This document shows, piece after piece, positions 14,001 to 64,000 of a stretch of DNA of 64,000 nucleotides. Source of the DNA: Dendrobates tinctorius. Taxonomy: Eukaryota. How positions within the stretch are numbered: the first letter of the stretch is position 1; every line of letters starts with the position of its first letter. The position numbers and the translations under genes were made by a program. The DNA is taken from NCBI RefSeq assembly GCF_039654945.1, contig NW_027361677.1, positions 21,638,001 to 21,702,000 of the forward strand. The letters run 5' to 3'. A model generated the notes under the pieces. The model did not search any database. It saw only the letters and a program-made list of their open reading frames with translations, and was not told the DNA's origin.

Positions 14001-15061
14001 ACATTGTGTGGAGGTCTGTACCAGATGCCGCACACTGGTGACGGACGGTCCCGGCTCACCTCCATGGTGTAGTGCAGGTCGCCCATCACCTTCCCGGCTA
14101 ATCCATCCTGTTCCCGGGCTTCGATCTCTCCCTGCAGCTCCATCAGTAACCACTCCGCAGGCTGCCCCTGGACGTCCCTGTAATGACAGAGGGTGAGATC
14201 AGCGCGGCCGGTACCATCATAGTCTGGGATACGCACTGACAGCAAAGGGTCATTTACATCCTGGCAGACTGGAGGCACCACCTGCAACCTCTGCAGGATC
14301 TCACACCCACAGGGCATGATGGGAATTGTAGTTCTACAACAGTTACAGAATCAATAGCTGTACGTGCTGGGATTTATAGTCGCACAGCTGTGACGTTATA
14401 TACCACAGGGCATGCTGGGATTTTTAGTCCCAACTGAATCAACCACAGGGCGTGCTGGGATTTGTAGTCCCAACTGAATCAACCACAGGGCATGCTGGGA
14501 TTTGTAGTCCCAACTGAATCAACCACAGGGCATGCTGGGATTTGTAGTCCCAACTGAATCAACCACAGGGCATGCTGGGATTTGTAGTCCCAACTGAATC
14601 AACCACAGGGCGTGCTGGGATTTGTAGTCCCAACTGAATCAACCACAGGGCGTGCTGGGATTTGTAGTCCCAAATGAATCGACCACAGGGCATGCTGGGA
14701 TTTGTAGTCCCAACTGAATCAACCACAGGGCATGCTGGGATTTGCAGTCCTACAATAGGCCCATAATTAGAATGACAGGACATGTTGGGAACTGTAGTTA
14801 TCCCGCAGCTACAGAATGAAAGGCAGGGCTTGATGGGACTTGTATTCGCCTTTACATAAAGCATGGTTGGGACTACTGGAACTTATGGAATTCTACAGGA
14901 CTTACAGAATCAGGAAAACAAGACATGCTGGGACGTGTAGTACTACACGTCTGTAGGAAGGGGATTGGACAGGCGATGTGTGCAGGGTATGAGTGAGACA
15001 GGACGTGCTGGGACTAGTAGTTCTACAGCATAACTGACCTGGACACAACTATCTGCACCAT
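11018..15061 (-). CDS. chtf8: Chromosome transmission fidelity factor 8; coding exons 15061-15039, 14177-14060, 11245-11018 (122 aa)
   Basis: Spliced translation [29 protein letters not shown]...[23 protein letters not shown]...[17 protein letters not shown] is recognisable as CTF8. Exons of 23+118+228 nt, GT-AG, in phase. Confidence 0.96.
11466..12976 (+). mobile_element. Tc1/mariner transposon relic in CHTF8 intron 2 (frameshifted transposase)
   Basis: TA-flanked TIR CAGTGGAGA..ATTTGATA.ACTG at both ends. Transposase remnants MAKTKDLS (11825), [38 protein letters not shown]. Confidence 0.9.
12661..12703 (+). ncRNA. Degenerate minimal type-I hammerhead ribozyme (PLE type) inside the Tc1 relic
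   Basis: CTGAGGA-A-GAGGAG(ccatgaa)CTCCTC-GAAA-CACG-TT-GGT: intact core and 6-bp stem II; stems I and III imperfect. Confidence 0.7.
13539..13829. mobile_element. Harbinger-like MITE (GCGGA/TCCGC-rich family)
   Basis: TIR GGGTATGTGCACACGTTGCGGATT / AATCCGCAATGTGTGCACATACCC; TTA on the left flank. Confidence 0.8.
14401..14750. repeat. 40-bp minisatellite (~8.7 copies) AACCACAGGGCATGCTGGGATTTGTAGTCCCAACTGAATC in CHTF8 intron 1
   Basis: Exact 40-bp period visible. Each unit contains the reverse complement of ACTACAAATCCCAGCATGC. Confidence 0.95.
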
Positions 15062-36969: not shown

Positions 36970-39900
36970 ATGGCTGTGTGGACCCGAGCCTCCAAGTCCG
37001 GGCTCCTGGAGCTGCTGCTGCAGGACCACTGGGTGCGGGTGCAGGCGGAGCTCTCCGGGGAGGCCCTGAGCCTGACCTCGGAGCAGGAGCCGGCGGCACT
37101 CAATGGCATGAGCAATGGCACGGAGGTGGCCCCTGGCAGCCCCCGCAGGGGCCCCGGCCGCTCCGGGACCAGCTCCCCCCAGGCAGGCTCGGACTGCGGC
37201 TCGGAGTCAGGACTGGGGAGCCCCGGGGCCAGGTTCCCCCTGGACAGCCCGGAGCCGGCGAGGAGGGTGAGGGTGGTGAAGCAGGAGTTTGGCGGACTGG
37301 GCATCAGCATCAAGGGCGGCCAGGAGAACCACATGCCCATCCTCATCTCCAAGATCTTCCCGGGACTGGCGGCGGACAAGAGCCAGGCGCTGAGGGTGGG
37401 GGACGCCATCCTGTCCGTGAACGGTGCCGACCTGAGGCATGCCACCCACGACCAGGCTGTGCAGGTGCTGAAGAAGGCGGGCAAGGAGGTGACACTGGAA
37501 GGTGAGCTGCCGGGGGCTGTCTGCCAGGGGATAACAAGAGGACTGTCTACCAGGGAATAGCTGCCGGGGGACTGTCTACTGGGGCGCTGTCTGCCGGGGG
37601 CTGTCTACCAGGGAATAGCTACCAGGACTGTCTACCAGGGAATAGCTACCAGGGGCTGTCTACCAGGGAATAGCTATCAGGGACTGTCTACCAGGGAATA
37701 GCTATCAGGGACTGTCTACCAGGGAATAGCTATCAGGGACTGTCTACCAGGGAATAGCTACCAGGACTGTCTACCAGGGAATAGCTACCAGGGGCTGTCT
37801 ACCAGGGAATAGCTACCGGGGGACTGTCTACCGGGGGCTGTCTGCCAGGGGATAACAAGAGGACTGTCTACCGGGGGACTGTCTGCCAGGGGATAACAAG
37901 AGGACTGTCTACCAGGGAATAGCTGCCGGGGGACTGTCTACCGGGGGCTGTCTGCCAGGGGATAACAAGAGGACTGTCTACCGGGGGACTGTCTGCCAGG
38001 GGATAACAAGAGGACTGTCTACCAGGGAATAGCTGCCGGGGGACTGTCTACTGGGGCGCTGTCTGCCGGGGGCTGTCTACCAGGGGCTGTCTACCAGGGA
38101 ATAGCTACCAGGGACTGTCTACCAGGGAATAGCTACCAGGGACTGTCTACCAGGGAATAGCTATCAGGGACTGTCTACCAGGGAATAGCTACCAGGGACT
38201 GTCTGCCAGGGAATAGCTACCAGGGACTGTCTACCAGGGAATAGCTATCAGGGACTGTCTGCCAGGGAATAGCTACCAGGACTGTCTACCAGGGAATAGC
38301 TATCAGGGACTGTCTACCAGGGAATAGCTATCAGGGACTGTCTACCAGGGAATAGCTATCAGGGACTGTCTACCAGGGAATAGCTATCAGGGACTGTCTA
38401 CCAGGGAATAGCTATCAGGGACTGTCTACCAGGGAATAGCTATCAGGGACTGTCTACCAGGGAATAGCTATCAGGGACTGTCTACCAGGGAATAGCTATC
38501 AGGGACTGTCTACCAGGGAATAGCTATCAGGGACTGTCTACCAGGGAATAGCTATCAGGGACTGTCTACCAGGGAATAGCTACCAGGACTGTCTACCAGG
38601 GAATAGCTACCAGGGGCTGTCTACCAGGGAATAGCTACCGGGGGACTGTCTGCCAGGGGATAACAAGAGGACTGTCTGCCAGGGACTGTCTACCGGGGAC
38701 TGTCTACCAGGGGATAACAAGAGGACTGTCTACCAGGGAATAGCTGCCGGGGGACTGTCTACTGGGGCGCTGTCTGCCGGGGGCTGTCTGCCAGGGGATA
38801 ACAAGAGGACTGTCTACTGGGGCGCTGTCTGCCGGGGGCTGTCTACCAGGGGGCTGTCTACCAGGGAATAGCTACCAGGGGGCTGTCTACCAGGGAATAG
38901 CTACCAGGGGCTGTCTACTGGGGCGCTGTCTGCCGGGGGCTGTCTACCAGGGGCTGTCTACCAGGGAATAGCTACCAGGGACTGTCTATCAGGGACTGTC
39001 TGCCAGGGAATAGCTACCAGGGACTGTCTACCGGGGGGCTGTCTGCCAGGGACTGTCTACCGGGAGACTGTCTACCAGGGGGCTGTCTGCCAGGGAATAT
39101 CTACCAGGGACTGTCTACCGGGGGACTGTCTGCCAGGGAATAGCTACCAGGGACTGTCTGCCGGGGGCTGTCTGCCAGGGACTGTCTACCAGGGAATAGC
39201 TACCAGGGACTGTCTACCGGGGGACTGTCTACTGGGGCGCTGTCTGCCAGGGAATAGCTACCGGGGGGCTGTCTGCCAGGGACTGTCTACCGGGGGACTG
39301 TCTGCCAGGGAATAGCTACCAGGGACTGTCTACTGGGGCGCTGTCGGCCAGGGAATAGCTACCAGGCACTGTCTGCCAGGGAATAGCTACCAGGCACTGT
39401 CTACTGGGGCGCTGTCTGCCAGGGAATAGCTACCAGGGACTGTCTACTGGGGCGCTGTCTGCCAGGGAATAGCTACGGGGGGCTGTCTACCGGGGGGCTG
39501 TCTACTGGGGCGCTGTCTGCCAGGGAATAGCTACCAGGGACTGTCTACCAGGGGACTGTCTACTGGGGCGCTGTCTGCCAGGGAATAGCTACCGGGGGCT
39601 GTCTACCGGGGGGCTGTCTGCCAGGGACTGTCTGCCAGGGAATAGCTACCGGGGGACTGTCTACCGGGGGCTGTCTGCCAGGGAATAGCTACCGGGGGAC
39701 TGTCTACCGGGGGCTGTCTGCCAGGGAATAGCTACCGGGGGACTGTCTACCGGGGGCTGTCTGCCAGGGAATAGCTACCGGGGGACTGTCTACCGGGGGC
39801 TGTCTGCCAGGGAATAGCTACCGGGGGCTGTCTACCGGGGGACTGTCTGCCAGGGAATAACTACCGGGGGCTGTCTACCGGGGGACTGTCTGCCAGGGAA

Positions 39901-42900
39901 TAACTACCGGGGGCTGTCTGCCGGGGGACTGTCTGCCAGGGAATAACTACCGGGGGCTGTCTACCGGGGGACTGTCTGCCAGGGAATAGCTACCGGGGGA
40001 CTGTCTGCCAGGGAATAGCTACCGGGGGACTGTCTGCCAGGGAATAGCTACCGGGGGACTGTCTACCGGGGGACTGTCTGCCAGGGAATAGCTACCGGGG
40101 GACTGTCTACCGGGGGACTGTCTGCCAGGGAATAGCTACCGGGGGACTGTCTACCGGGGGACTGTCTGCCAGGGAATAGCTACCGGGGGACTGTCTACCG
40201 GGGGACTGTCTGCCAGGGAATAGCTACCGGGGGACTGTCTACCGGGGGACTGTCTGCCAGGGAATAGCTACCGGGGGACTGTGTGCCAGGGAATAGCTAC
40301 CGGGGGACTGTCTACCGGGGGGACTGTCTGCCAGGGAATAGCTACCGGGGGACTGTCTACCGGGGCACTGTCTGCCAGGGAATAGCTACCAGGCACTGTC
40401 TGCCGGGGGCTGTCTGCCGGGGGCTGTCTGCCGGGGGCTGTCTGCCGGGGGCTGTCTACCGGGGGACTGTCTACCAGGGGGTGTCTACCGGGGCACTGTC
40501 TACCAGGGAATAGCTACCAGGGACTGTCTACTGGGGCACACCGATCATGGATCCAGTGTCATTTCACTGGACTTCTCACTGGAACTTGCACTCCTTTTTT
40601 TTTTTCCTTCTAGTGGTTTTAGAATAAGTTTTTGGCAGAAACTGCGCCCCCTCTTGTCCATTGGCGGTGCCTGGTATTGCAGATTGGTGGCAAGATTGGG
40701 CACAACCCGTAGACACACAGCAGTATGTTATAAGAAAGTGATTCCTTGTACATGATTTCTATCAGCCACCAAGTGGGAATTTAAGAGACCCCCAGAAAGA
40801 ACCTGACATGCCCATACACCTCCAGTCGCCCCGCATTACATGAACGCGCAGCTCGGACGAGTGCTGGATTTTTCCGATTGGCAGAGGGGAATAAGCTGAC
40901 GCCGGACACTTCTGGGGAGCATTTTTCTCACCGATGGGACATGCTGAAATACAACATGCCCGATCCTTTCTCCCCATCATTATCATCCACAAGTAGAATG
41001 ACAGTTATTGTAGGCTTTTCCCAAACTGATGGATCTATATATAATGGGGCAGTCCAGAAGCTGAGAGCGCTGGGTTGTAACGTCGGCCATGTTGGCTGTC
41101 ACCCAGCTTTCCCAGCACCAGATATAACTTGGAGGTGACAGAAAAACATTTTTACCAGCTATTACTATTCTTACTCCTCTCCCGGTAACATTTCCTAAAT
41201 ACTATTGCACCACATAAAATGAAACTTGTGTTATACTGACCACACCCGAAACTTACTGGTTTCAAATTGCATAGATTTTCCTTGTTTTTTTGAATACCTG
41301 ATTTTTAGTCATTTTCTTGCACTTCTGTCTATCACTTGTAAAATCTTAAGCAATAGGCAAAAAAAAAGTTAGTAGAAAACTGGATATTCGTGTTCCACTG
41401 ACATGACTTGGAGAATATATCTGCCTGTATTATACTCACTATTCTGCTGGTGCAGTCACTGTGTACATACATTACATTACTGATCCTGAGTTACACCATG
41501 TATTATACCCCAGAGCTGCTCTCACTAATCTGCTGGTGCAGTCACTGTGTACATACATTACATTACTGATCCTGAGTTACATCCTGTATTATACTCCAGA
41601 GCTGCACTCACTATTCTGCTGGTGCAGTCACTGTGTACATATATTACATTACTGATCCTGAGTTACATCCTGTATTATACTCCAGAGCTGCACTCCCTAT
41701 TCTGCTGGTGCAGTCACTGTGTACATACATTACATTACTGATCCTGAGTTACATCCTGTATTATACTCCAGAGCTGCTCTCACTATTCTGCTGGTGCAGT
41801 CACTGTGTACATACATTACTGATCCTGAGTTACATCCTGTATTATACTCCAGAGCTGCACTCCCTATTCTGCTGGTGCAGTCACTGTGTACATACATTAC
41901 ATTACTGATCCTGAGTTACATCCTGTATTATACTCCAGAGCTGCACTCACTATTCTGCTGGTGCAGTCTTTATTTTTTATTTATTTATTTATTTTTTTTA
42001 ATGAAGCTTAAAATAAAGCCTAGTGAAAACACAAAAAACCTGCAGGTCAGTTCTTATAAGCGAATCCTGGAGGAAATGTTTCCAAATTAGACACTATAGA
42101 ATCAAAAGGCTGCAGAGCACACCTCAGGAAAATAACTCTTAAAAGTTTCTTCAGCAAAGAAATATTATGTTCACCCAGCTGTAGTTTACTGTACATGTAT
42201 TAACCCAATAAATGAAAAACGTGCAGTCCCCCCCCTTTTTTTTTTTTTTTATAACCAGCAAAGGTAAAGTAGACAGCTGTGAGCAATATTATCAGGCTGG
42301 GAAGGTCCATGGTTATTGGGCAATTCCCATCCTAAAAATACCAGCACCAGCCCGCAGCCGCCCCAAAAGTAGTGCATGACACTTCGCCTCAGCTCTTGGA
42401 GCAGTGGCAATTTGGGTAATGGTAGTTCGAGTTAATAACAGCTGTGGTTTGTCAAAATTCCCAGCTGCCATCAACCCCTGGGGTTAGTGATAGGGAGGTG
42501 TCTATGAGACACCCCCATTACTAACCCAGTAATTAAATGAAAAAAACACATAGGAAAAAATAGCGGTCACGTTCCTGCTATTCGCAGACGCTGGAGGCAA
42601 CGCGGAACGTAGACTGTATCGGACTTGGGTGGAAACATTTTGGGTAATAATTTGGCGAACAAGGGATTGTCTCCTTTTTTATTTTTTTTTTAGTTTTCCA
42701 TTTCTTTACTACTTTGCATTCGTTGGATTATGGCAGACCTGCATAGGATTTTTTTTTTTTTTCAATAAATTGGTGATAGAGGGATTTTTCTGTGTATATG
42801 TGTTATTACCAGGTTAGTAATGGGGGTGTCTGATGGACACCTCTCAATTAATAACGCAAGGGCTTGATCACAGCTGTCAACAACCCCAACTACCATTACC

Positions 42901-51900: not shown

Positions 51901-53926
51901 CACTACCTAGTATATTGTATCGTTGTGTTATTGTGCCATGTATCGCTTTGTCTTTCTCAGGTTGGTGCACTCGGGACTCGGGCAGAACTCGCCTTCTCTC
52001 GGGCCACATCTAACATTCGCCACTCGTACAGGGTATCCTCAGGGAATCGATATGCGCGTTTTCCGCGTGGAGAATCAACGGGATCTTTCCGCCTGGACGA
52101 GAGCGCTGGTGCAGGGGTGTCACACGTCGGCTGAACTCACGAGAGAGGTCACAGTTAGTAAGTGTTTTTTTTCGGTTGTACATAACTGTGCTTGCTGTCA
52201 ATAAATGAGAAAATTCATGTTTACGTGCACATGGTGATTAGGGTCTGAGTTTTCCAGGGTGTTTAATTTATAGAGAATCATCTACAATAGGTGCAATTGT
52301 AGCAAACTCTCAGCTGTGAGAAGTATCATCTAATGGGGAGTGTCTTTTCTGTTTCTTGTATATATTCTAGTAGACCCCTTAAATTTAGGCCAGCCTGAAT
52401 TATAAATGCTCACTGCTAATACATATACCAGTGCACATACTTCTTGACGATCTTTGGGCAAGATTCCTTAGTCCTGCTAAGGATTCAGGAATACTGTCGG
52501 AGTTCCCAGCATTCTGTCATCACCCCATATATAACATTGGGAGGATTTGGCTATGAAACCATTTACATGAGAGAAATTGTGGGTCCCCTTGAAGACACAT
52601 GGTGCGTGGTATTGGCCTTCATATCCTTTTAGCCTCTTGAATTATAGAAAATTTAATTTACAGATGGATAAAACAATCTCCAGTATTCCATGTATTCCTC
52701 ATGTCCTAATGTATCACCATAACACATTGCTATTCTACCTATCACCAGGCTGCTCTTTACGCGGGGAATCAGTCTCTCTCTCCATCCATTATGACACCGG
52801 ATTCACATTGTGCCGGGGAGGCCCTTCTGGTCCCGTCATGTACAGATACCCGTTCGAGAAGCTTCGTATGTCAGCTGATGATGGGACCAAAAATCTTTAT
52901 CTGGACTTTGGTGGACCAGAAGGAGAACTGGTAAGAGATGAGTGTATTAATATAATTAATATTTAGTGTATAACATACTGATGGAGCATCTGTACCTGAC
53001 ACCCATAGACAAATGCATATGTAGCCGTGCTGCTTATGGCGCCTCTGGTCCACAGGCTCTGCCCCCTGATTGCACTGGCTGCTGACCCCCAGACGCTACT
53101 CCTGATTGTGCTGGCTGCCAGTCTCTACCCCCTGATTGCACTGGCTGCTGACCCCCAGGCTCTGCCCCTTGACTGTGCTGGCTGCCAGGCTCTGCCCCCT
53201 GATTGCGCTGGCTGCTGACCCCCAGGCTCTGCCTCCTGATTGTGCTGGCTGCTGGCCGCCAGGCTCTACCCCCTGATTTCACTGGTTTCTGGCCCCCAGG
53301 CTCTACCCCCTAATTGCACTGGCTGCTGTCCCGATTGTGCTGGCTGCTGGCCGCCAGGCTCTACCCCCTGATTTTGCTGGTTGCTGGCCCCCAGGCACTG
53401 CCCCCTGATTGCGCTAGCTGCTGGCCCCCAGGCTCTGCCCCCTGTGATGGCCGCTGGTGCCTAGTCTCTGCCCCCCTGATCATTTGGGCAGTTTCGCCCA
53501 GGCTGTGCACACTGATCGTGCCAGCCACTGGACCCCAGAATCTGGACACTGATTGTGCTGGCTGCTGACCCCCAGGCTCTGCCCCCTGTGATGGCCGCTG
53601 GTGCCTAGTCTATGCCCCCCTGATCATTTGGGCAGTTTCGCCCAGGCTGTGCACACTGATCGTGCCAGCCACTGGACCCCAGAATCTGGACACTGATTGT
53701 GCTGGCTGCTGGTTCCCAGGCTCTGCCCCCTGATCGTGACCACTGATACGCCTTCCTCTAGCTATATTGAACTTCAATCATATAGTAGTTATATCACTTC
53801 TGTAGTAATAATTTTTTTTCCCCAACTTTTTAGGCTCTGGATTTGCACACGTGTCCGAAACCAGTTGTTTTCCTGTTACACACATTCCTTTCTGCTAAGG
53901 TCACCCGGATGGGTCTGCTGGTGTGA
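36970..53926 (+). CDS. sntb2: Beta-2-syntrophin; coding exons 36970-37501, 48769-48970, 49085-49280, 50520-50662, 51961-52157, 52749-52930, 53834-53926 (514 aa)
   Basis: Starts [17 protein letters not shown]. Split PH domain plus PDZ ([19 protein letters not shown]...DAILSVNG) and C-terminal SU domain ([13 protein letters not shown]...[29 protein letters not shown]). Seven exons sum to 1545 nt in frame. Syntenic after UTP4. Confidence 0.96.
37505..40540. repeat. ~3-kb composite G-rich minisatellite of 13-14-bp modules (CTGTCT[A/G]CC[A/G]GGG and AATAGCTACC[A/G]GGG) at the start of SNTB2 intron 1
   Basis: Directly visible; local higher-order periods of about 27 and 41 bp. Confidence 0.97.
41426..41968. 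repeat. 86-bp tandem repeat (~6 copies)
   Basis: Unit TGTGTACATACATTACATTACTGATCCTGAGTTACATCCTGTATTATACTCCAGAGCTGCACTCACTATTCTGCTGGTGCAGTCAC; ORF starts recur every 86 bp. Confidence 0.95.
42200..43130. mobile_element. Degenerate foldback (long inverted repeat) element
   Basis: ATAACCAGCAAAGGTAAAGTAGACAGCT (~42251) versus AGCTGTCTGCTTTACCTGTACTGGTTAT (~43040-43067), plus inner matches such as ACCCCCATTACTAACC / GGTTAGTAATGGGGGT. Confidence 0.7.
47003..47675. mobile_element. hAT-type MITE with (CCGACT)n subterminal arrays
   Basis: TIR CAGGGCTGTGGAGT / ACTCCACAGCCCTG with a perfect 8-bp TSD TGTGAAAC (46995-47002, 47676-47683). Confidence 0.92.
47712..47962. repeat. 112-bp tandem duplication (~2.2 copies) containing GCTGGGACTTGTAGT
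   Basis: Period visible at 47712, 47824 and 47936. Confidence 0.85.
49690..50040. repeat. Degenerate ~30-bp minisatellite (TATACAGTGTGAGCCCCACATAGCCTCC)
   Basis: Directly visible in SNTB2 intron 3. Confidence 0.85.
51233..51817. mobile_element. Near-perfect ~580-bp palindromic (foldback) MITE in SNTB2 intron 4
   Basis: The two halves are reverse complements; each arm carries an internal hairpin GGCTTATCTACAGCATT..AATGCTGTAGATAAGCC. Right end CCCTTTAA. Confidence 0.9.
53050..53740. repeat. Degenerate ~38-bp minisatellite (CCCCAGGCTCTGCCCCCTGATTGTGCTGGCTGCTG) in SNTB2 intron 6
   Basis: Directly visible, with a larger internal duplication. Confidence 0.9.
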
Positions 53927-54770: not shown

Positions 54771-55008
54771 CCCCTTAAGCCCCAAGGGTGGTTTGCACGT
54801 TAATGACCAGGCCAATTTTTTCAATTCTGACCACTGTCCCTTTATAAGGTAATAACTCTGAAACGCTTCCATGGATCCCGGTGATTCTGGCATTGTTTTC
54901 TCGTGACATATTGTACTTCATGTTAGTGGTAAAATTTCATTCAAATAACTTGCGTTTATTTGTGAAAAAAATGGAAATTTGGCGAAAATTTAGAAAAAAA
55001 AAAAAAAA
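54771..55008 (+). mobile_element. Left end of a TTAA-inserting (piggyBac-like) element, interrupted by the PLE
   Basis: TTAA followed by CCCCTTAAG...; truncated at an A-run (54994-55008); partner end not in the window. Confidence 0.55.
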
Positions 55009-55441
55009 TCAAATCTAAAAGTGAATAATTTGCGCTAGCAGGATACCATTCAGAGGTTTCAAAGAAATATCTACAGTAAAGCTGGTTCACAAAGTATATG
55101 TGCCGATACCTTTGTTCAGATGAATGAGGAACTGGTCGAAGGATGCTTCCTCAAGCAGGGTCCCGGTGCCAAGATGACGCTGAAAGCAGTAGTGATGCTG
55201 ATGAAAATGAGCTTGAAAGCGTTAGAGTTCCGTTGGTGAATGCAGGTATTGGACGCTGCTCCGGCCGGTAGCAAGCGTCCTTCTAATGGCGTGACCGCCG
55301 CCGACACCCGGCGAGTATAACGGCACGAGTAAAATCAAAAAGCCGGCAAGGTAGCAAAAACGTGCAGGACCTTGCGTGACGTCACGGTCACGTGGAACAC
55401 CACGTGACTGGCTAGTGAGCACGAAAACGACCAAAAAGCTG

Positions 55442-55481
55442 TCTTACGCGTTTCGGAATCACCGGATTCCTTCTTCAGAGA
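55442..55481 (-). ncRNA. Minimal type-I hammerhead ribozyme (inverted copy)
   Basis: Exact reverse complement of 63719-63758. Confidence 0.92.
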
Positions 55482-55536
55482 TGGTCCATGGTGCTCAATT
55501 ACGTTCATATATACCCGCGGTCTCCAAACTCCATGT

Positions 55537-57963
55537 TTATTGATTAAAGGCAAACAATTCAATCTCGCTGTTTAGCCCATTAGGAACAAGTGTATTCATT
55601 TCAAAAATCAGTCTACTTTCTTCTCTGGACATTTGTTGAATAAAGTTCCCCTTCCGCCAGCTTTTTTTAACCACTTTAATACCCGTAACTTTAACATTTT
55701 TAATAGAGCCTCCATGCTGATTAGCAAAATGGTGTGATAGAGGGTGACCCATAAATCTTTTTCTAATATTGCGCAAATGCTCTGCTAACCGGACATGCAA
55801 TGGGCGTTTTGTGCGTCCTATGTATAGTTTCCCACAGGGGCATGTAATACCATATATAACCCCTGTGGTGTCGCAGGTAATAAAATCTTTAATTTTTACC
55901 TCCGCAAATTTGTTAGTAATCCCTCCCTGTTTTTTAGAGGTCAGTTTTTTACAGGGGCCACACTTTCCACACGGAAAAAAACCCCCTGGTAATTTGTCCG
56001 GATTTGAATTGATACTACTTAGTGGTTTAGAAATAGAGGGGGCTATAAGATTTCCCAAATTTTGTGCCTTCTTAAAAATAAACCTCGGGTATGTCGGTAA
56101 AGATTCCCCTATAACCTTATCATTTCTCAGGATATTCCAATGTCTCCTGACAATTTTTTTAAAAATAATACTATTAGAGTTATATTGTGAAATTATGGGG
56201 ATGTCTTCCATAAGAGCATTGGCATTTTTTCTCATACGTTGTTCCAATAATTGATCCCTTGGAATTTTTTCCACTAGTTTTTTTGTTTTCACTAAAGATG
56301 TTGGATCATAGCCCTTACTGGAAAACTTTTTCATCATTGCTTCTGCCTCTCTATCAAAATCCTCCCTTTTCGAACAGTTGCGATGAGCTCTAATTAATTG
56401 GCTTTTTGGAACATTCAATAGCCAGCTAGGTAAATGGCAACTGTCGAGTGAAATAAAATTATTAGAGTCTGTAGGCTTATGGTATAGTCGTGAGCCAATG
56501 GCATTGTTTTCTACAAAAATTTCTAAATCTAAAAAGTTAACTTCTTTGGAACTCGTGGTCATAGAAAATTTTAAAAAGTAGGAATTTTTATTTAGTGAAT
56601 TAAAAAATTGTTCCAATAACAAAGGACCACCAGACCATATAAAAACAATATCATCTATAAATCGATGCCATAGCACGAGGTTCGCTAGTAATCTGCCGTC
56701 GGGATATATGGTTTCCTGTTCCCATTTTCCAACGTACAGATTTGCATAACTAGGTGCGAACCTCGTGCCCATAGCTGTACCCCACTGCTGGGAGTAGTAG
56801 TCCATCCCATATCGAAAAAAATTGTGAGTTAAAATAAAATTTATACACTCAAGAAGATATTCAATTTGGTCAAGCGGCAGTGAACCATCCTTCCTCAGGA
56901 AATGTTCCACTGCTTCGCATCCCTTTTTATGCTGAATAACTGTATACAAGGAAGTAATGTCCAGTGTGCCCAAGATATAATGATCACACCATTGTATCTT
57001 CTTTAAAATACCTAAAATATGGGTGCTGTCCCTAAGATACGCCGGGAGATCCGGTATCAATCTTTGTAAATGACAATCAACAAATTTGGATAGATTTGAT
57101 GTTAAACCCCCAATAGCAGAGATAATCGGTCTCCCGGGTGGTTGGCTCATGTTTTTATGCACCTTAGGTAAATAATAAAAGTACGGCACTCTAGGGTGAG
57201 GTGTATTAATAAAATCAATTTCTTTTTTATTTAAAATACCCTTTTCAAAGCCCTTGTTTAGCAATTCCCGCATCTCTACCAAATAATCATTAGAAGGATC
57301 ATGGGTTAGTAATTTATAAGTTTGTCTGTCGTCCAAAATCCGCAGTGCTTCTTTCTCATGATCCAACGTGTTTAGTATTACTATACCGCCCCCTTTATCT
57401 GCTGGTCTGATAGTAATCTCCCTATTCTCCTTAAGTTGCTTAATGGCTATTCTTTCATTATGTGATAAATTGTGTTTAAATTTGTTACATCGCTTGTCAG
57501 AAATTTTTCTAATTTCGAGTATAACATTATTTTGAAAAGCTTCAAATGCCTCCGAATACTCCTGTATAGGATTAAAGTTAGATTTTTTCTTTAGACCAGT
57601 GTGTATATATAGATCAGGAGTATTCATGGGGTCATCAGTATTGCTACTAATTTTCTTTTTCATATAGTGTTTCTTCAGGGCTAGTTTCCTCATGAACAAT
57701 TTTACACCCACAAAAGCCTGAAATTTATCAAATTTAACACTGGGAGCGTACTTAAGACCTTTATTTAATAAACGGGTTTCATTGTCTTGTAGGGGATATT
57801 GACTTAGATTGAATATTTTTTGTGGTTCAGGGGCTGATATTTGATCTATCTTTGATGGGGATTGTTGTATGTTCTTTTTTTTGGTAGATTCCCCGCCCCT
57901 ACACCCCCTTTTTCGTTTCTTTTTTGGCCTAACTGAAAAAAAGAAAGATGACTCTGCTTTGTT
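55537..57963 (-). CDS. PLE ORF2: reverse transcriptase + GIY-YIG endonuclease (inverted copy; frame open from 57963, no early ATG)
   Basis: IFNLS..LLNKGL, ADKGG, YLPKVHK, GRPIIS, LDITSLYT, GTAMG, RFIDD, FLDL, CGKCGPC, VIYGITCPCGKLYIGRTKR. Confidence 0.93.
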   Translation of the reverse strand, partial: NKAESSFFFSVRPKKKRKRGCRGGESTKKKNIQQSPSKIDQISAPEPQKIFNLSQYPLQDNETRLLNKGLKYAPSVKFDKFQAFVGVKLFMRKLALKKHYMKKKISSNTDDPMNTPDLYIHTGLKKKSNFNPIQEYSEAFEAFQNNVILEIRKISDKRCNKFKHNLSHNERIAIKQLKENREITIRPADKGGGIVILNTLDHEKEALRILDDRQTYKLLTHDPSNDYLVEMRELLNKGFEKGILNKKEIDFINTPHPRVPYFYYLPKVHKNMSQPPGRPIISAIGGLTSNLSKFVDCHLQRLIPDLPAYLRDSTHILGILKKIQWCDHYILGTLDITSLYTVIQHKKGCEAVEHFLRKDGSLPLDQIEYLLECINFILTHNFFRYGMDYYSQQWGTAMGTRFAPSYANLYVGKWEQETIYPDGRLLANLVLWHRFIDDIVFIWSGGPLLLEQFFNSLNKNSYFLKFSMTTSSKEVNFLDLEIFVENNAIGSRLYHKPTDSNNFISLDSCHLPSWLLNVPKSQLIRAHRNCSKREDFDREAEAMMKKFSSKGYDPTSLVKTKKLVEKIPRDQLLEQRMRKNANALMEDIPIISQYNSNSIIFKKIVRRHWNILRNDKVIGESLPTYPRFIFKKAQNLGNLIAPSISKPLSSINSNPDKLPGGFFPCGKCGPCKKLTSKKQGGITNKFAEVKIKDFITCDTTGVIYGITCPCGKLYIGRTKRPLHVRLAEHLRNIRKRFMGHPLSHHFANQHGGSIKNVKVTGIKVVKKSWRKGNFIQQMSREESRLIFEMNTLVPNGLNSEIELFAFNQ

Positions 57964-58922
57964 TTAGGTTGTGATTTTCTCTGTTGTGGTTCCCTCGGAC
58001 CAACCTTCTCTTTTCTACTATCTACTGTAGGCTTGTCTTTATATTTATCGCTCCCAATAGAAGGAATATTTTCTATGTTTTCTATAACCGTAAATCGGTT
58101 ATGAGTACTAATGGAGGGTAATGGTGTGGAAATGGCTGGTAGTTCTGCACCCTGTACCTCAGTAATGACCCCACTATTAGCTCTTTCCATGTGTGTAAGA
58201 TTTTCCATATCAGAGGTCAGATGAATAGAAAATCTTTCACTTGATGTAGGGAGAGAAGTCTCCTCTCCATGTATCTCATCTAGAGTCAACAATGGACCTG
58301 AAGATTTAGGAGAGTGTTGTTCTTCATATTGATGTGCAACTTCGCCTCTGGTTATTTGGCTATCCCCATGGTTAGATGTTATAGATATTAAATTTTTATT
58401 AGTAGTAAAAACCGAGTCCCTCCCAAACTTTCTACGTTTTTTCTCTACTATTTCCTTTTCTTTATTACGTATCCTCTTTTTAATGTTACCAGAAAGGTAT
58501 ATAATTTCAGGGTGGAGCTCGTAAGGTTTGATCTCTTCAAATAAATTCATAATTTCTCTGCGTATCCTCAATAGTTCACTCCTCCTCTTCTCAATAATGA
58601 AGGATACAGTTCTTTTAGAAAATTCCTTAAACATGACATCCCATTCAGCTAATGTTTCTGGGTCCCCAATATCACCCATCAGGGGTTTGTACACCATTAA
58701 CCCCTTTGGTATACAATCAGAGGCTAAATATCTTTCCAGTGTGGATATCTCCCACAAGTCTCTCATTTCTTTCAATAAGTATTGCTCCAACGTTTTGAGT
58801 GATTTAATCGTCTGAGATATTTCCACCTTATTGGGGTTAGCCACAGATGCATGCTGTTCGAAATTGAAAAATCTCTGGATATTATATATCCTTTCTTTCC
58901 TATCAGACCATAAAGTGGCCAT
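57846..58922 (-). CDS. PLE ORF1 / N-terminal region (358 aa from ATG; inverted copy)
   Basis: Intact ORF identical to the forward copy; LERYLASDCIPKGL motif, helical/basic region, acidic low-complexity tail. Confidence 0.8.
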   Translation of the reverse strand: MATLWSDRKERIYNIQRFFNFEQHASVANPNKVEISQTIKSLKTLEQYLLKEMRDLWEISTLERYLASDCIPKGLMVYKPLMGDIGDPETLAEWDVMFKEFSKRTVSFIIEKRRSELLRIRREIMNLFEEIKPYELHPEIIYLSGNIKKRIRNKEKEIVEKKRRKFGRDSVFTTNKNLISITSNHGDSQITRGEVAHQYEEQHSPKSSGPLLTLDEIHGEETSLPTSSERFSIHLTSDMENLTHMERANSGVITEVQGAELPAISTPLPSISTHNRFTVIENIENIPSIGSDKYKDKPTVDSRKEKVGPREPQQRKSQPKTKQSHLSFFQLGQKRNEKGGVGAGNLPKKRTYNNPHQR

Positions 58923-59601
58923 AGTATGCAGACAACCTACAAATTTAATATAAACAAATAGCTTAATTAATTTAGAATAAGGATGAACAACGCTGCCTCT
59001 GTGAGCGGTGGTGAAACCTTTTTTAAAACCATAAAAACATAAGCACAAAGGCGCAAGTTCCTATATGATACCGCCTGCAGCTGCAAATAAGGACAACAAC
59101 CACCCAATTTGTCCAACAATAAAAGCCCCTGTAAAAAACTGACCTCTAAAAAACAGGGAGGGATTACTAACAAATTTGCGGAGGTAAAAATTAAAGATTT
59201 TATTACCTGCGACACCACAGGGGTTATATATGGTATTACATGCCCCTGTGGGAAACTATACATAGGACGCACAAAACGCCCATTGCATGTCCGGTTAGCA
59301 GAGCATTTGCGCAATATTAGAAAAAGATTTATGGGTCACCCTCTATCACACCATTTTGCTAATCAGCATGGAGGCTCTATTAAAAATGTTAAAGTTACGG
59401 GTATTAAAGTGGTTAAAAAAAGCTGGCGGAAGGGGAACTTTATTCAACAAATGTCCAGAGAAGAAAGTAGACTGATTTTTGAAATGAATACACTTGTTCC
59501 TAATGGGCTAAACAGCGAGATTGAATTGTTTGCCTTTAATCAATAAACATGGAGTTTGGAGACCGCGGGTATATATGAACGTAATTGAGCACCATGGACC
59601 A

Positions 59602-59641
59602 TCTCTGAAGAAGGAATCCGGTGATTCCGAAACGCGTAAGA
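59602..59641 (+). ncRNA. Minimal type-I hammerhead ribozyme in the PLE pseudo-LTR
   Basis: TCT-CTGAAGA-A-GGAATC(cggt)GATTCC-GAAA-CGCG-TA/AGA: 3-bp stem I, 6-bp stem II, palindromic ACGCGT stem III; predicted cleavage after 59638. Confidence 0.92.
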
Positions 59642-60277
59642 CAGCTTTTTGGTCGTTTTCGTGCTCACTAGCCAGTCACGTGGTGTTCCACGTGACCGTG
59701 ACGTCACGCAAGGTCCTGCACGTTTTTGCTACCTTGCCGGCTTTTTGATTTTACTCGTGCCGTTATACTCGCCGGGTGTCGGCGGCGGTCACGCCATTAG
59801 AAGGACGCTTGCTACCGGCCGGAGCAGCGTCCAATACCTGCATTCACCAACGGAACTCTAACGCTTTCAAGCTCATTTTCATCAGCATCACTACTGCTTT
59901 CAGCGTCATCTTGGCACCGGGACCCTGCTTGAGGAAGCATCCTTCGACCAGTTCCTCATTCATCTGAACAAAGGTATCGGCACATATACTTTGTGAACCA
60001 GCTTTACTGTAGATATTTCTTTGAAACCTCTGAATGGTATCCTGCTAGCGCAAATTATTCACTTTTAGATTTGACTTTTATTGTTGGACAAATTGGGTGG
60101 TTGTTGTCCTTATTTGCAGCTGCAGGCGGTATCATATAGGAACTTGCGCCTTTGTGCTTATGTTTTTATGGTTTTAAAAAAGGTTTCACCACCGCTCACA
60201 GAGGCAGCGTTGTTCATCCTTATTCTAAATTAATTAAGCTATTTGTTTATATTAAATTTGTAGGTTGTCTGCATACT

Positions 60278-61354
60278 ATGGCCACTTTATGGTCTGATAG
60301 GAAAGAAAGGATATATAATATCCAGAGATTTTTCAATTTCGAACAGCATGCATCTGTGGCTAACCCCAATAAGGTGGAAATATCTCAGACGATTAAATCA
60401 CTCAAAACGTTGGAGCAATACTTATTGAAAGAAATGAGAGACTTGTGGGAGATATCCACACTGGAAAGATATTTAGCCTCTGATTGTATACCAAAGGGGT
60501 TAATGGTGTACAAACCCCTGATGGGTGATATTGGGGACCCAGAAACATTAGCTGAATGGGATGTCATGTTTAAGGAATTTTCTAAAAGAACTGTATCCTT
60601 CATTATTGAGAAGAGGAGGAGTGAACTATTGAGGATACGCAGAGAAATTATGAATTTATTTGAAGAGATCAAACCTTACGAGCTCCACCCTGAAATTATA
60701 TACCTTTCTGGTAACATTAAAAAGAGGATACGTAATAAAGAAAAGGAAATAGTAGAGAAAAAACGTAGAAAGTTTGGGAGGGACTCGGTTTTTACTACTA
60801 ATAAAAATTTAATATCTATAACATCTAACCATGGGGATAGCCAAATAACCAGAGGCGAAGTTGCACATCAATATGAAGAACAACACTCTCCTAAATCTTC
60901 AGGTCCATTGTTGACTCTAGATGAGATACATGGAGAGGAGACTTCTCTCCCTACATCAAGTGAAAGATTTTCTATTCATCTGACCTCTGATATGGAAAAT
61001 CTTACACACATGGAAAGAGCTAATAGTGGGGTCATTACTGAGGTACAGGGTGCAGAACTACCAGCCATTTCCACACCATTACCCTCCATTAGTACTCATA
61101 ACCGATTTACGGTTATAGAAAACATAGAAAATATTCCTTCTATTGGGAGCGATAAATATAAAGACAAGCCTACAGTAGATAGTAGAAAAGAGAAGGTTGG
61201 TCCGAGGGAACCACAACAGAGAAAATCACAACCTAAAACAAAGCAGAGTCATCTTTCTTTTTTTCAGTTAGGCCAAAAAAGAAACGAAAAAGGGGGTGTA
61301 GGGGCGGGGAATCTACCAAAAAAAAGAACATACAACAATCCCCATCAAAGATAG
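60278..61354 (+). CDS. PLE ORF1 / N-terminal region (358 aa from ATG)
   Basis: ATG in strong Kozak context (ACTATGG); intact ORF; overlaps the ORF2 frame by 118 nt. Confidence 0.8.
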   Translation: MATLWSDRKERIYNIQRFFNFEQHASVANPNKVEISQTIKSLKTLEQYLLKEMRDLWEISTLERYLASDCIPKGLMVYKPLMGDIGDPETLAEWDVMFKEFSKRTVSFIIEKRRSELLRIRREIMNLFEEIKPYELHPEIIYLSGNIKKRIRNKEKEIVEKKRRKFGRDSVFTTNKNLISITSNHGDSQITRGEVAHQYEEQHSPKSSGPLLTLDEIHGEETSLPTSSERFSIHLTSDMENLTHMERANSGVITEVQGAELPAISTPLPSISTHNRFTVIENIENIPSIGSDKYKDKPTVDSRKEKVGPREPQQRKSQPKTKQSHLSFFQLGQKRNEKGGVGAGNLPKKRTYNNPHQR

Positions 61355-63663
61355 ATCAAATATCAGCCCCTGAACCACAAAAAATATTCAATCTAAGTCA
61401 ATATCCCCTACAAGACAATGAAACCCGTTTATTAAATAAAGGTCTTAAGTACGCTCCCAGTGTTAAATTTGATAAATTTCAGGCTTTTGTGGGTGTAAAA
61501 TTGTTCATGAGGAAACTAGCCCTGAAGAAACACTATATGAAAAAGAAAATTAGTAGCAATACTGATGACCCCATGAATACTCCTGATCTATATATACACA
61601 CTGGTCTAAAGAAAAAATCTAACTTTAATCCTATACAGGAGTATTCGGAGGCATTTGAAGCTTTTCAAAATAATGTTATACTCGAAATTAGAAAAATTTC
61701 TGACAAGCGATGTAACAAATTTAAACACAATTTATCACATAATGAAAGAATAGCCATTAAGCAACTTAAGGAGAATAGGGAGATTACTATCAGACCAGCA
61801 GATAAAGGGGGCGGTATAGTAATACTAAACACGTTGGATTATGAGAAAGAAGCACTGCGGATTTTGGACGACAGACAAACTTATAAATTACTAACCCATG
61901 ATCCTTCTAATGATTATTTGGTAGAGATGCGGGAATTGCTAAACAAGGGCTTTGAAAAGGGTATTTTAAATAAAAAAGAAATTGATTTTATTAATACACC
62001 TCACCCTAGAGTGCCGTACTTTTATTATTTACCTAAGGTGCATAAAAACATGAGCCAACCACCCGGGAGACCGATTATCTCTGCTATTGGGGGTTTAACA
62101 TCAAATCTATCCAAATTTGTTGATTGTCATTTACAAAGATTGATACCGGATCTCCCGGCGTATCTCAGGGACAGCACCCATATTTTAGGTATTTTAAAGA
62201 AGATACAATGGTGTGATCATTATATCTTGGGCACACTGGACATTACTTCCTTGTATACAGTTATTCAGCATAAAAAGGGATGCGAAGCAGTGGAACATTT
62301 CCTGAGGAAGGATGGTTCACTGCCGCTTGACCAAATTGAATATCTTCTTGAGTGTATAAATTTTATTTTAACTCACAATTTTTTTCGATATGGGATGGAC
62401 TACTACTCCCAGCAGTGGGGTACAGCTATGGGCACGAGGTTCGCACCTAGTTATGCAAATCTGTACGTTGGAAAATGGGAACAGGAAACCATATATCCCG
62501 ACGGCAGATTACTAGCGAACCTCGTGCTATGGCATCGATTTATAGATGATATTGTTTTTATATGGTCTGGTGGTCCTTTGTTATTGGAACAATTTTTTAA
62601 TTCACTAAATAAAAATTCCTACTTTTTAAAATTTTCTATGACCACGAGTTCCAAAGAAGTTAACTTTTTAGATTTAGAAATTTTTGTAGAAAACAATGCC
62701 ATTGGCTCACGACTATACCATAAGCCTACAGACTCTAATAATTTTATTTCACTCGACAGTTGCCATTTACCTAGCTGGCTATTGAATGTTCCAAAAAGCC
62801 AATTAATTAGAGCTCATCGCAACTGTTCGAAAAGGGAGGATTTTGATAGAGAGGCAGAAGCAATGATGAAAAAGTTTTCCAGTAAGGGCTATGATCCAAC
62901 ATCTTTAGTGAAAACAAAAAAACTAGTGGAAAAAATTCCAAGGGATCAATTATTGGAACAACGTATGAGAAAAAATGCCAATGCTCTTATGGAAGACATC
63001 CCCATAATTTCACAATATAACTCTAATAGTATTATTTTTAAAAAAATTGTCAGGAGACATTGGAATATCCTGAGAAATGATAAGGTTATAGGGGAATCTT
63101 TACCGACATACCCGAGGTTTATTTTTAAGAAGGCACAAAATTTGGGAAATCTTATAGCCCCCTCTATTTCTAAACCACTAAGTAGTATCAATTCAAATCC
63201 GGACAAATTACCAGGGGGTTTTTTTCCGTGTGGAAAGTGTGGCCCCTGTAAAAAACTGACCTCTAAAAAACAGGGAGGGATTACTAACAAATTTGCGGAG
63301 GTAAAAATTAAAGATTTTATTACCTGCGACACCACAGGGGTTATATATGGTATTACATGCCCCTGTGGGAAACTATACATAGGACGCACAAAACGCCCAT
63401 TGCATGTCCGGTTAGCAGAGCATTTGCGCAATATTAGAAAAAGATTTATGGGTCACCCTCTATCACACCATTTTGCTAATCAGCATGGAGGCTCTATTAA
63501 AAATGTTAAAGTTACGGGTATTAAAGTGGTTAAAAAAAGCTGGCGGAAGGGGAACTTTATTCAACAAATGTCCAGAGAAGAAAGTAGACTGATTTTTGAA
63601 ATGAATACACTTGTTCCTAATGGGCTAAACAGCGAGATTGAATTGTTTGCCTTTAATCAATAA
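61237..63663 (+). CDS. PLE ORF2: reverse transcriptase + GIY-YIG endonuclease (frame open from 61237; first ATG only at 61507)
   Basis: Same motifs as the inverted copy. The upstream extension encodes RPKKKRKRGCRGG and IFNLSQYPLQDNETRLLNKGLKYAP. Confidence 0.93.
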   Translation, partial: NKAESSFFFSVRPKKKRKRGCRGGESTKKKNIQQSPSKIDQISAPEPQKIFNLSQYPLQDNETRLLNKGLKYAPSVKFDKFQAFVGVKLFMRKLALKKHYMKKKISSNTDDPMNTPDLYIHTGLKKKSNFNPIQEYSEAFEAFQNNVILEIRKISDKRCNKFKHNLSHNERIAIKQLKENREITIRPADKGGGIVILNTLDYEKEALRILDDRQTYKLLTHDPSNDYLVEMRELLNKGFEKGILNKKEIDFINTPHPRVPYFYYLPKVHKNMSQPPGRPIISAIGGLTSNLSKFVDCHLQRLIPDLPAYLRDSTHILGILKKIQWCDHYILGTLDITSLYTVIQHKKGCEAVEHFLRKDGSLPLDQIEYLLECINFILTHNFFRYGMDYYSQQWGTAMGTRFAPSYANLYVGKWEQETIYPDGRLLANLVLWHRFIDDIVFIWSGGPLLLEQFFNSLNKNSYFLKFSMTTSSKEVNFLDLEIFVENNAIGSRLYHKPTDSNNFISLDSCHLPSWLLNVPKSQLIRAHRNCSKREDFDREAEAMMKKFSSKGYDPTSLVKTKKLVEKIPRDQLLEQRMRKNANALMEDIPIISQYNSNSIIFKKIVRRHWNILRNDKVIGESLPTYPRFIFKKAQNLGNLIAPSISKPLSSINSNPDKLPGGFFPCGKCGPCKKLTSKKQGGITNKFAEVKIKDFITCDTTGVIYGITCPCGKLYIGRTKRPLHVRLAEHLRNIRKRFMGHPLSHHFANQHGGSIKNVKVTGIKVVKKSWRKGNFIQQMSREESRLIFEMNTLVPNGLNSEIELFAFNQ

Positions 63664-63718
63664 ACATGGAGTTTGGAGACCGCGGGTATATATGAACGTA
63701 ATTGAGCACCATGGACCA

Positions 63719-63758
63719 TCTCTGAAGAAGGAATCCGGTGATTCCGAAACGCGTAAGA
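63719..63758 (+). ncRNA. Minimal type-I hammerhead ribozyme (second forward copy)
   Basis: Identical to 59602-59641, 4117 bp downstream. Confidence 0.92.
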
Positions 63759-64000
63759 CAGCTTTTTGGTCGTTTTCGTGCTCACTAGCCAGTCACGTGG
63801 TGTTCCACGTGACCGTGACGTCACGCAAGGTCCTGCACGTTTTTGCTACCTTGCCGGCTTTTTGATTTTACTCGTGCCGTTATACTCGCCGGGTGTCGGC
63901 GGCGGTCACGCCATTAGAAGGACGCTTGCTACCGGCCGGAGCAGCGTCCAATACCTGCATTCACCAACGGAACTCTAACGCTTTCAAGCTCATTTTCATC

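Follow-up and report, generated by a model that had tools for sequence, protein, structure and literature searches.

The 64,000-nucleotide stretch of the Dendrobates tinctorius genome analyzed here (GCF_039654945.1, contig NW_027361677.1, positions 21,638,001 to 21,702,000; the window, in whose coordinates positions are given) carries a Penelope-like element (PLE) in which the frame for the reverse transcriptase (RT) and GIY-YIG endonuclease overlaps the upstream open reading frame, ORF1, by 118 nt in the −1 register. Comparison of this element with its relatives suggests that the RT is made from the overlapping frames by programmed −1 ribosomal frameshifting (PRF), a reading to which we assign a probability of about 0.8. 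Ribosomes would slip back one base at the heptamer U_UUU_UUU (61258-61264) to give a 1128-aa ORF1-RT-endonuclease fusion, and most would terminate at 61354 to release the 358-aa ORF1 protein. An earlier, sequence-only reading of this DNA had proposed this scheme; its coordinates for the two frames and their overlap, its first RT-frame ATG, its two in-phase heptamers and its length for the fusion were all correct on recheck (Table 1).

The position of the frame change is indicated by the way in which codons vary on either side of the T-run. We counted single-base codon differences in 31 distinct blocks from 50 copies. Upstream of the T-run the ratio of synonymous to non-synonymous differences is 17:5 in the ORF1 frame and 0:25 in the RT frame, and downstream of it the ratios are 7:30 and 27:12, respectively. 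Between the T-run and the later A-run lies the segment RKRGCRGG, where the RT frame has a ratio of 14:1 and the ORF1 frame 1:16. Judged by these counts, each frame is under purifying selection on its own side of the site, and RKRGCRGG is under protein-level selection in the RT frame. The basic RPKKKRKRGCRGG segment has no upstream AUG in its frame, and the nearest RT-frame stop is always 5' of the T-run, 3-87 nt away. The selection pattern therefore implies that the RT-frame protein starts between the T-run and the basic segment, in a stretch without AUG. Among 47 distinct ORF1s the two Phe codons of the T-run are never TTC, a codon that does appear in 12 of 14 control columns of conserved Phe; related copies vary to T_TTT_TTA or G_TTT_TTT and never to TTC. 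The lack of TTC, together with the frame-specific selection, argues that the T-run is kept as DNA letters. On this codon evidence the frame changes at 61258-61264 or no more than about 12 nt beyond it, and not at the second heptamer, A_AAA_AAA at 61318. The latter was rejected as the main site because the conserved RT-frame segment RKRGCRGG already lies upstream of it. A third in-phase heptamer, A_AAT_TTA at 60805, is outside the overlap. The comparative evidence thus favors the T-run over the later A-run, as the sequence-only reading had supposed, and an in-phase, conserved X XXY YYZ heptamer lies within the overlap, as in canonical −1 PRF.

Close copies of the element retain this arrangement. 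A DNA search of the 6.36-Gb genome gave 238 candidates, the best 40 of which were scored and 30 loci fetched, at 84-100% identity and including two from the window itself. All 30 have the run of seven T followed by CAG, and the RT match is in the −1 frame in 29; the remaining locus (L026) has a private 1-nt deletion further downstream. The alignment of family copies that had been put forward as a check was therefore passed, and the overlap and slippery site are confirmed to be neither an assembly error nor the decay of one copy. In a protein search the best 150 of 8846 candidates were scored and 90 loci were used, 30 as returned (largely the same copies as in the DNA search) and 60 chosen by hand, six of these for their long frames. 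Four had no RT match, which left 86 with 55-100% ORF1 identity. Fifty-nine of these read in the ORF1 phase and then in −1, 11 in 0 and five in +1, and 11 are off register before the site; the 27 loci that depart from the ORF1-then-minus-1 pattern are out of register through indels. The site is TTTTTTT in 41 loci, GTTTTTT in 34, TTTTTTA in eight and another sequence in three, with CAG after it in 82 of 86. In the six hand-picked long-frame copies (L061-L066) the frame changes after RGCRGG, at differing places.

More distant families in the same genome show the same association between a split frame and a slippery site. A full HMMER search with ORF1 found 212 homologues at E<=0.001, mostly stand-alone proteins of 230-450 aa, the named ones coming from frogs and salamanders; a word-index search with the same query was empty. 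FF or FL occurs within the last 75 residues of 37 of 119 ORF1 homologues, against 16 expected. Three homologues without slippery-site bias were used as queries and gave 130 loci, from which representatives were picked by hand; the unbiased loci were grouped at 65% ORF1 identity, and of 250 loci overall, 222 contained both domains. The unbiased groups comprise 13 that are split, all of them in −1, 14 that are fused, and one broken +1 group with a single member. In 12 of the 13 split groups and in two of the 14 fused groups, a strict heptamer in phase lies 60-150 nt ahead of the RT N-terminal motif. In the other two phases heptamers occur in one split group each, and base shuffling predicts 1.2 of 13. 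Heptamers in the distant split groups are A_AAA_AAC, A_AAA_AAT and T_TTT_TTA. A search by T-run pattern matched no more often than its control (113 vs 277); the loci that it gave, with T-runs lacking AG in −1 families, are therefore a lead only and are excluded from the 12/13 count. On an RT tree of this genome's elements (29 rows, midpoint root; two short rows and six broken singleton groups excluded) the split families occupy deep branches. The genome also contains single-ORF families, 1017-1160 aa long, in which this ORF1 domain is joined to RT; the ORF1 domain and RT in one chain are therefore a natural product. The high-copy single-ORF families (L181-L210, L238, L252-L254, L259 and L268) lie mostly on one branch of the RT tree.

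An RT alignment search of metagenome contigs extended the comparison, with the best 80 of 254 relatives kept. Six of these loci had no N-terminal motif and 11 no upstream DNA, which left 63 to be classed by a test symmetric for both frames: 26 are fused, 19 unclear, 18 split in −1 and none split in +1. A strict in-phase heptamer is present in 13 of the 18 split loci, with zero and one in the other phases, and in one of the 26 fused loci. These sites include T_TTA_AAC immediately before the ORF1 stop; G_TTA_AAC occurs at L356, and T_TTT_TTG at L292 and L340. The linker zinc-finger and GIY-YIG motifs are present in those loci that are long enough to hold them. Six metagenome ORF1s have weak GDSL matches below the curated cut-off, and three of the six have NADAR above cut-off; the presence of heptamers with such ORF1s implies that the type of site persists despite a different ORF1. 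The three are L345:3-2468, L347:57-2468 and L307:240-2468, in which a long ORF1, with NADAR above the Pfam cut-off and a weak GDSL esterase match, ends at T_TTA_AAC with the stop directly after; they appear to be endonuclease-bearing (EN+) PLEs, the motifs having been seen for L345. Esterases are described in Neptune-like PLEs of fish and molluscs in the part of PMC5408684 consulted. A search of viral contigs found no relative.

A number of observations weigh against the frameshifting interpretation or reduce the force of these counts. A shuffle of the RT-frame codons alone gives heptamers in 5.5 of the 13 split groups, because Lys-Lys-Arg creates A_AAA_AAC. The split or fused label needs three changes on the RT tree, so the groups are related rather than independent, and the tree does not tell which state came first; a record prefix is common to many of the metagenome loci, which represent fewer than 18 independent cases. 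Neither set of counts is accordingly independent, and the Fisher P of 7e-5 overstates the significance. A full-length single frame is found in two of the 150 protein matches. In L061 and L062 a single frame is open throughout, yet RGCRGG still lies in −1 and the frame change comes later, at different places, which would fit private indels in A-runs. The imperfect heptamer G_TTT_TTT is present in 13 of 16 fully open copies, a set defined by its open −1 frame, so that its count is no test of the offset. Twelve of these also have A_AAA_AAA 12 nt later, a run that the window family lacks, and the exact slip site may therefore differ between subfamilies. The G_TTT_TTT subfamilies (L069-L073, L078, L081, L088, L097, L098, L112 and L114) mostly have this perfect A_AAA_AAA downstream, and the two may be tandem slip sites. 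On the side of PRF, G_TTT_TTT matches the GUU exception to the heptamer rule in the published account consulted in part (PMC4411683).

The RNA downstream of the site also counts against PRF. No stable structure was found 5-9 nt after the window site (70 nt after the site, z +0.6 against shuffles), and a 31-block alignment gave no alignment-wide structure after it. Folding did not support the G-run at 61292-61309, which the sequence-only reading had pointed out between the two heptamers, as a folded stimulator, and an Rfam search gave no match. Among 22 representatives, predicted structure is only mildly stronger 3' of the site than 5' of it (mean z −0.85 vs −0.05; z below −1 in nine vs three), and hairpins are predicted after the site in some relatives (L100, L227, L232 and L356). 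The stem-loop or pseudoknot of canonical −1 PRF was thus not found in the window copy, where no dedicated pseudoknot search was made. Finally, the site in the window family can also be read as a pyrimidine tract followed by CAG (CAG in 29 of 31 blocks). The slip proposed by the sequence-only reading is therefore supported as to frame and place, with a stimulator not found and a splice acceptor as a second, disfavored reading of the same letters.

RNA contigs from three runs match other parts of the element and not 61051-62319, which is evidence neither way. Transcriptional slippage, in which RNA polymerase II would add one base to some transcripts, within a run of T6-7 or A6, and so yield the same fusion, has viral precedents in the GA6 site of potyviruses and the editing of Ebola GP, and would accord both with sites that are all homopolymer runs and with the lack of a folded stimulator in the window copy. 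Polymerase slippage is independent of phase, however, yet the sites keep to the ORF1 phase (12/13 vs 1 and 1 in the genome, 13/18 vs 0 and 1 in the metagenomes), and T_TTA_AAC and G_TTA_AAC contain no run longer than three; we consider this route improbable.

Alternative splicing to an acceptor at 61250-61267, with an upstream donor joining ORF1 or the leader to the RT frame, is in our view distinctly improbable. The acceptor-like sequence is real, CAG being kept in most close copies as given above, and introns are known in PLEs according to the passages of PMC8557442 consulted. However, no conserved donor was found in ORF1 among 55 distinct copies, none exceeding 2 in the window family (with an approximate donor matrix); the third positions of the Phe codons are never C, though an acceptor would tolerate C; and the stretch of leader from 59700 to the candidate 5' donor described below is free of ATG. 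An acceptor-like YAG precedes the RT N-terminal motif in only three of 14 family representatives, and since the A-type sites lack acceptors, splicing cannot be the general route.

Separate initiation of the RT, either at Met 61507 or by ribosomes that start again past the ORF1 stop, would account for a first RT-frame Met that in 47 of 50 copies is found 40-42 aa beyond IFNLS, and for ORF1 stops that cluster shortly before the RT N-terminal motif in many families. A protein begun in this way would lose the IFNLS...KGL block kept in all families; the selection on RKRGCRGG in the RT frame, 5' of the ORF1 stop, would go unexplained; and nine of 14 representatives lack any RT-frame Met ahead of the RT N-terminal motif, all of which makes this route highly improbable. 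Decay or assembly error, by which a single-ORF element lost one nucleotide of a homopolymer and was passively copied, can appeal to the single-ORF families in the same genome and to the ease with which frameshift mutations are said to arise in the A-rich basic linkers of PLEs (PMC8557442, in the part consulted), but is largely refuted by the identical offset in near-identical young copies and deeply diverged families, by the absence of +1 as a family-level state, and by purifying selection on both frames, each on its own side of the site. Given these contrasts, we infer that the frame is changed by the ribosome rather than by the polymerase or the spliceosome.

Known systems offer several comparisons for the putative −1 PRF site. 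Canonical EN+ PLEs are described as single-ORF elements in the sections of PMC8557442 consulted, and are contrasted with two-ORF EN-minus elements in those of PMC6431247; the window family has two overlapping frames instead, with the N-terminal domain as a separate ORF1 in −1 to the RT. The statement of the sequence-only reading that endonuclease PLEs are usually described as single-ORF thus agrees with these papers, although a frameshifted ORF1 in some PLEs is already in print: the legend to Fig. 1 of PMC8557442 states that a frameshift with a pseudoknot can set ORF1 apart, and the legend in the preprint (bioRxiv 10.1101/2021.04.23.441226) has the frameshift as 'often' and ties Coprina to Athena. 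The elements meant in these legends are probably the EN-minus Athena/Coprina. They resemble the window element in having a long-helix ORF1 5' of the RT with a frameshift between; unlike them, the window element has an endonuclease, and a pseudoknot was not found in it, no dedicated search having been made. The killifish Neptune element repeat.CL27 (PMC12602865) similarly has an ORF1 (420 nt, no database match) 5' of an RT ORF2, but is reported with two non-overlapping, ATG-defined ORFs, and the word frameshift does not occur in its main text. The excerpts of PMC3846280, PMC6515669, PMC5718144 and 10.64898/2026.07.22.740005 consulted contain nothing on frameshifting. No programmed frameshift in EN+ PLEs was found in the literature searched; Repbase was outside this search and may already describe one.

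A further likeness is to the −1 frameshifting of the gag-pol genes of retroviruses and Ty3/gypsy elements: a short −1 overlap has an in-phase heptamer where it begins, and a structural-type ORF is followed by an enzyme ORF. Unlike gag-pol, the window copy lacks a stable stimulator in the 5-9 nt position 3' of the site, its ORF1 has no zinc knuckle or recognized capsid fold, and the element has no protease, integrase or long terminal repeat (LTR). The X XXY YYZ rule for eukaryotic slippery sites is set out in the part of PMC4411683 consulted.

We lean slightly towards the broader view that −1 PRF is an old and widespread route of RT expression in animal Neptune-type EN+ PLEs, kept across deep lineages, with single-ORF families derived from it. 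This view takes in interchangeable sites (U7, U6A, U6C, A6C, and U_UUA_AAC followed by a stop) and different ORF1 proteins (the helical domain described below, or NADAR with a GDSL esterase), and some sites may work without a classical folded stimulator. If it is true, the 'single ORF' picture is wrong for a large part of EN+ PLEs. If the RT is indeed made by frameshifting, amphibian 'uncharacterised proteins' in their thousands are ORF1 products of such elements, and RT models begun at the first ATG miss the real N-terminus. The biochemistry of Neptune RTs would then need the transframe fusion, of which QSHLSFFSVRPK would be the transframe peptide, and natural −1 frameshift sites would be available from a vertebrate source that is high in copy number and not viral. 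The co-occurrence of split and fused families provides a built-in comparison, and the site is testable in a reporter insert of about 120 nt. Telomerase is the sister group of the PLE reverse transcriptases, whose expression has, to our knowledge, barely been studied.

The ORF1 protein has a conserved, all-helical N-terminal domain of about 180 aa, followed by a low-complexity linker that ends in KTKQSHLSFF at the slip site. An AlphaFold2 model of the N-terminal 181 aa has four long helices with a confidence (pLDDT) of 89.5. ORF1 matches no Pfam family and no PDB fold at E<=0.001. A two-copy model of the domain scored 0.45 against 0.01 for the best control, with runs agreeing on at least 70% of contacts and pLDDT of at least 69. 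Of solved microbial structures, 21 of 30 dimers and 0 of 23 monomers attained the mark used for this score; of eukaryotic ones, 17 of 29 dimers (7 of 16 from animals) and 0 of 30 monomers did so, but one of seven eukaryotic dimers without an older solved relative. The model thus supports self-association of the ORF1 domain. By analogy with Gag or L1 ORF1p, ORF1 may be a self-associating helical scaffold for packaging or for a ribonucleoprotein, and would presumably be made in excess over the fusion. The ORF1 ends of the L129/L139/L142/L149 set (IKNFF, INSFF, LEDFF) are similar to the core of the PCNA-binding PIP box, and QSHLSFF in the window (61238-61264) is PIP-box-like with a spacing one residue short. 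Two database proteins (P0001 and P0133) have the ORF1 domain followed by C2H2 zinc-finger arrays, and are either gene-model chimeras or recruited ORF1 domains.

The overlap derives from a recently inserted, young, single Penelope-like retrotransposon insertion, whose parts are collected in Table 1. By its motifs the element would be classed as a Neptune-like EN+ PLE. The RT motifs lie at 61384 (IFNLS), 61798 (ADKGG), 62065 (GRPI), 62419 (GTAMG) and 62536 (RFIDD), and are followed by a C-terminal GIY-YIG domain with a Cys pair between GIY and YIG. The CGKCGPC motif at 63229 is of the CX2-5CxxC type defined for the linkers of Neptune and Nematis in the section of PMC8557442 (Craig et al. 2021) consulted. 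These features, with the partial tandem and inverted copies and the target-site duplication described next, are shared with Neptune-clade EN+ PLEs as described there, and the candidate hammerhead-like motif may be as well. The RT frame matched no Pfam family and a PDB sequence search gave no match at threshold, so motifs and resemblance to related elements are the basis of the EN+ assignment.

The insertion has the architecture of an element with a pseudo-LTR (pLTR): a partial tandem repeat that provides the 5' pLTR of the full copy, an inverted full copy and a 13-14 bp duplication. The full copy ends at window-equivalent 64287. The inverted copy contains the same 7-nt run, as the sequence-only reading had noted, but the inverted arms (55200-59125 and 60075-64000) differ at two of 3926 bases, and it is therefore no independent evidence. 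The hammerhead-like motif, read by eye, recurs at 63719-63758; an Rfam search and a minimum-free-energy fold did not recover it. It matches the description of minimal hammerhead ribozymes (min-HHR) in pLTRs in the part of PMC4209133 consulted.

Table 1. Features of the Penelope-like insertion in the window.
Feature	Positions	Strand	Remarks
Target-site duplication, left half, 13-14 bp	54984..54997	+	Right half past element end, outside window
Inverted full copy	54998..59125	-	ORF1 58922-57846; heptamer 57942-57936; RT frame 57963-55537
5'-truncated upstream repeat (endonuclease ORF end and pLTR)	59125..60170	+	Identical to 63242-64287
Minimal hammerhead-like motif (CTGAAGA, 6-bp helix II, GAAAC...GTA)	59602..59641	+	In pLTR; read by eye
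ORF1	60278..61354	+	ATG 60278, TAG 61352-61354; 358 aa
RT/GIY-YIG frame	61237..63663	+	In −1 to ORF1; 808 aa between stops, open from 61237
Slippery heptamer T_TTT_TTT, putative −1 shift site	61258..61264	+	In ORF1 phase
RT/GIY-YIG frame, putative entry	61264	+	First ATG at 61507, 3' of conserved IFNLS block
Basic RPKKKRKRGCRGG segment, possibly like a nuclear localization signal	61270..61308	+	In RT frame, 5' of ORF1 stop
Second heptamer A_AAA_AAA	61318..61324	+	3' of conserved RT-frame segment
Linker zinc-finger-like motif CGKCGPC (CX2-5CxxC)	63229..63249	+	Between RT and endonuclease
GIY-YIG core GVIYGITCPCGKLYIG	63337..63384	+	Two Cys between motifs

Upstream of ORF1, a candidate 290-nt 5' intron (59974-60263; AAG|GTATCG ... 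TTTGTAG|G) would take out three upstream ATGs before 60278; its acceptor is present in close subfamilies only. A sequence resembling a cAMP response element (TGACGTCA) and two CACGTG boxes, seen by eye in the pLTR at 59670-59710, may mark an internal promoter. Elsewhere the window contains several short inverted repeats and minisatellite arrays at 14322-14841, 37471-40601, 41348-42030 and 53015-53771, with units of about 40, 14-15, 86 and 37 nt, respectively.

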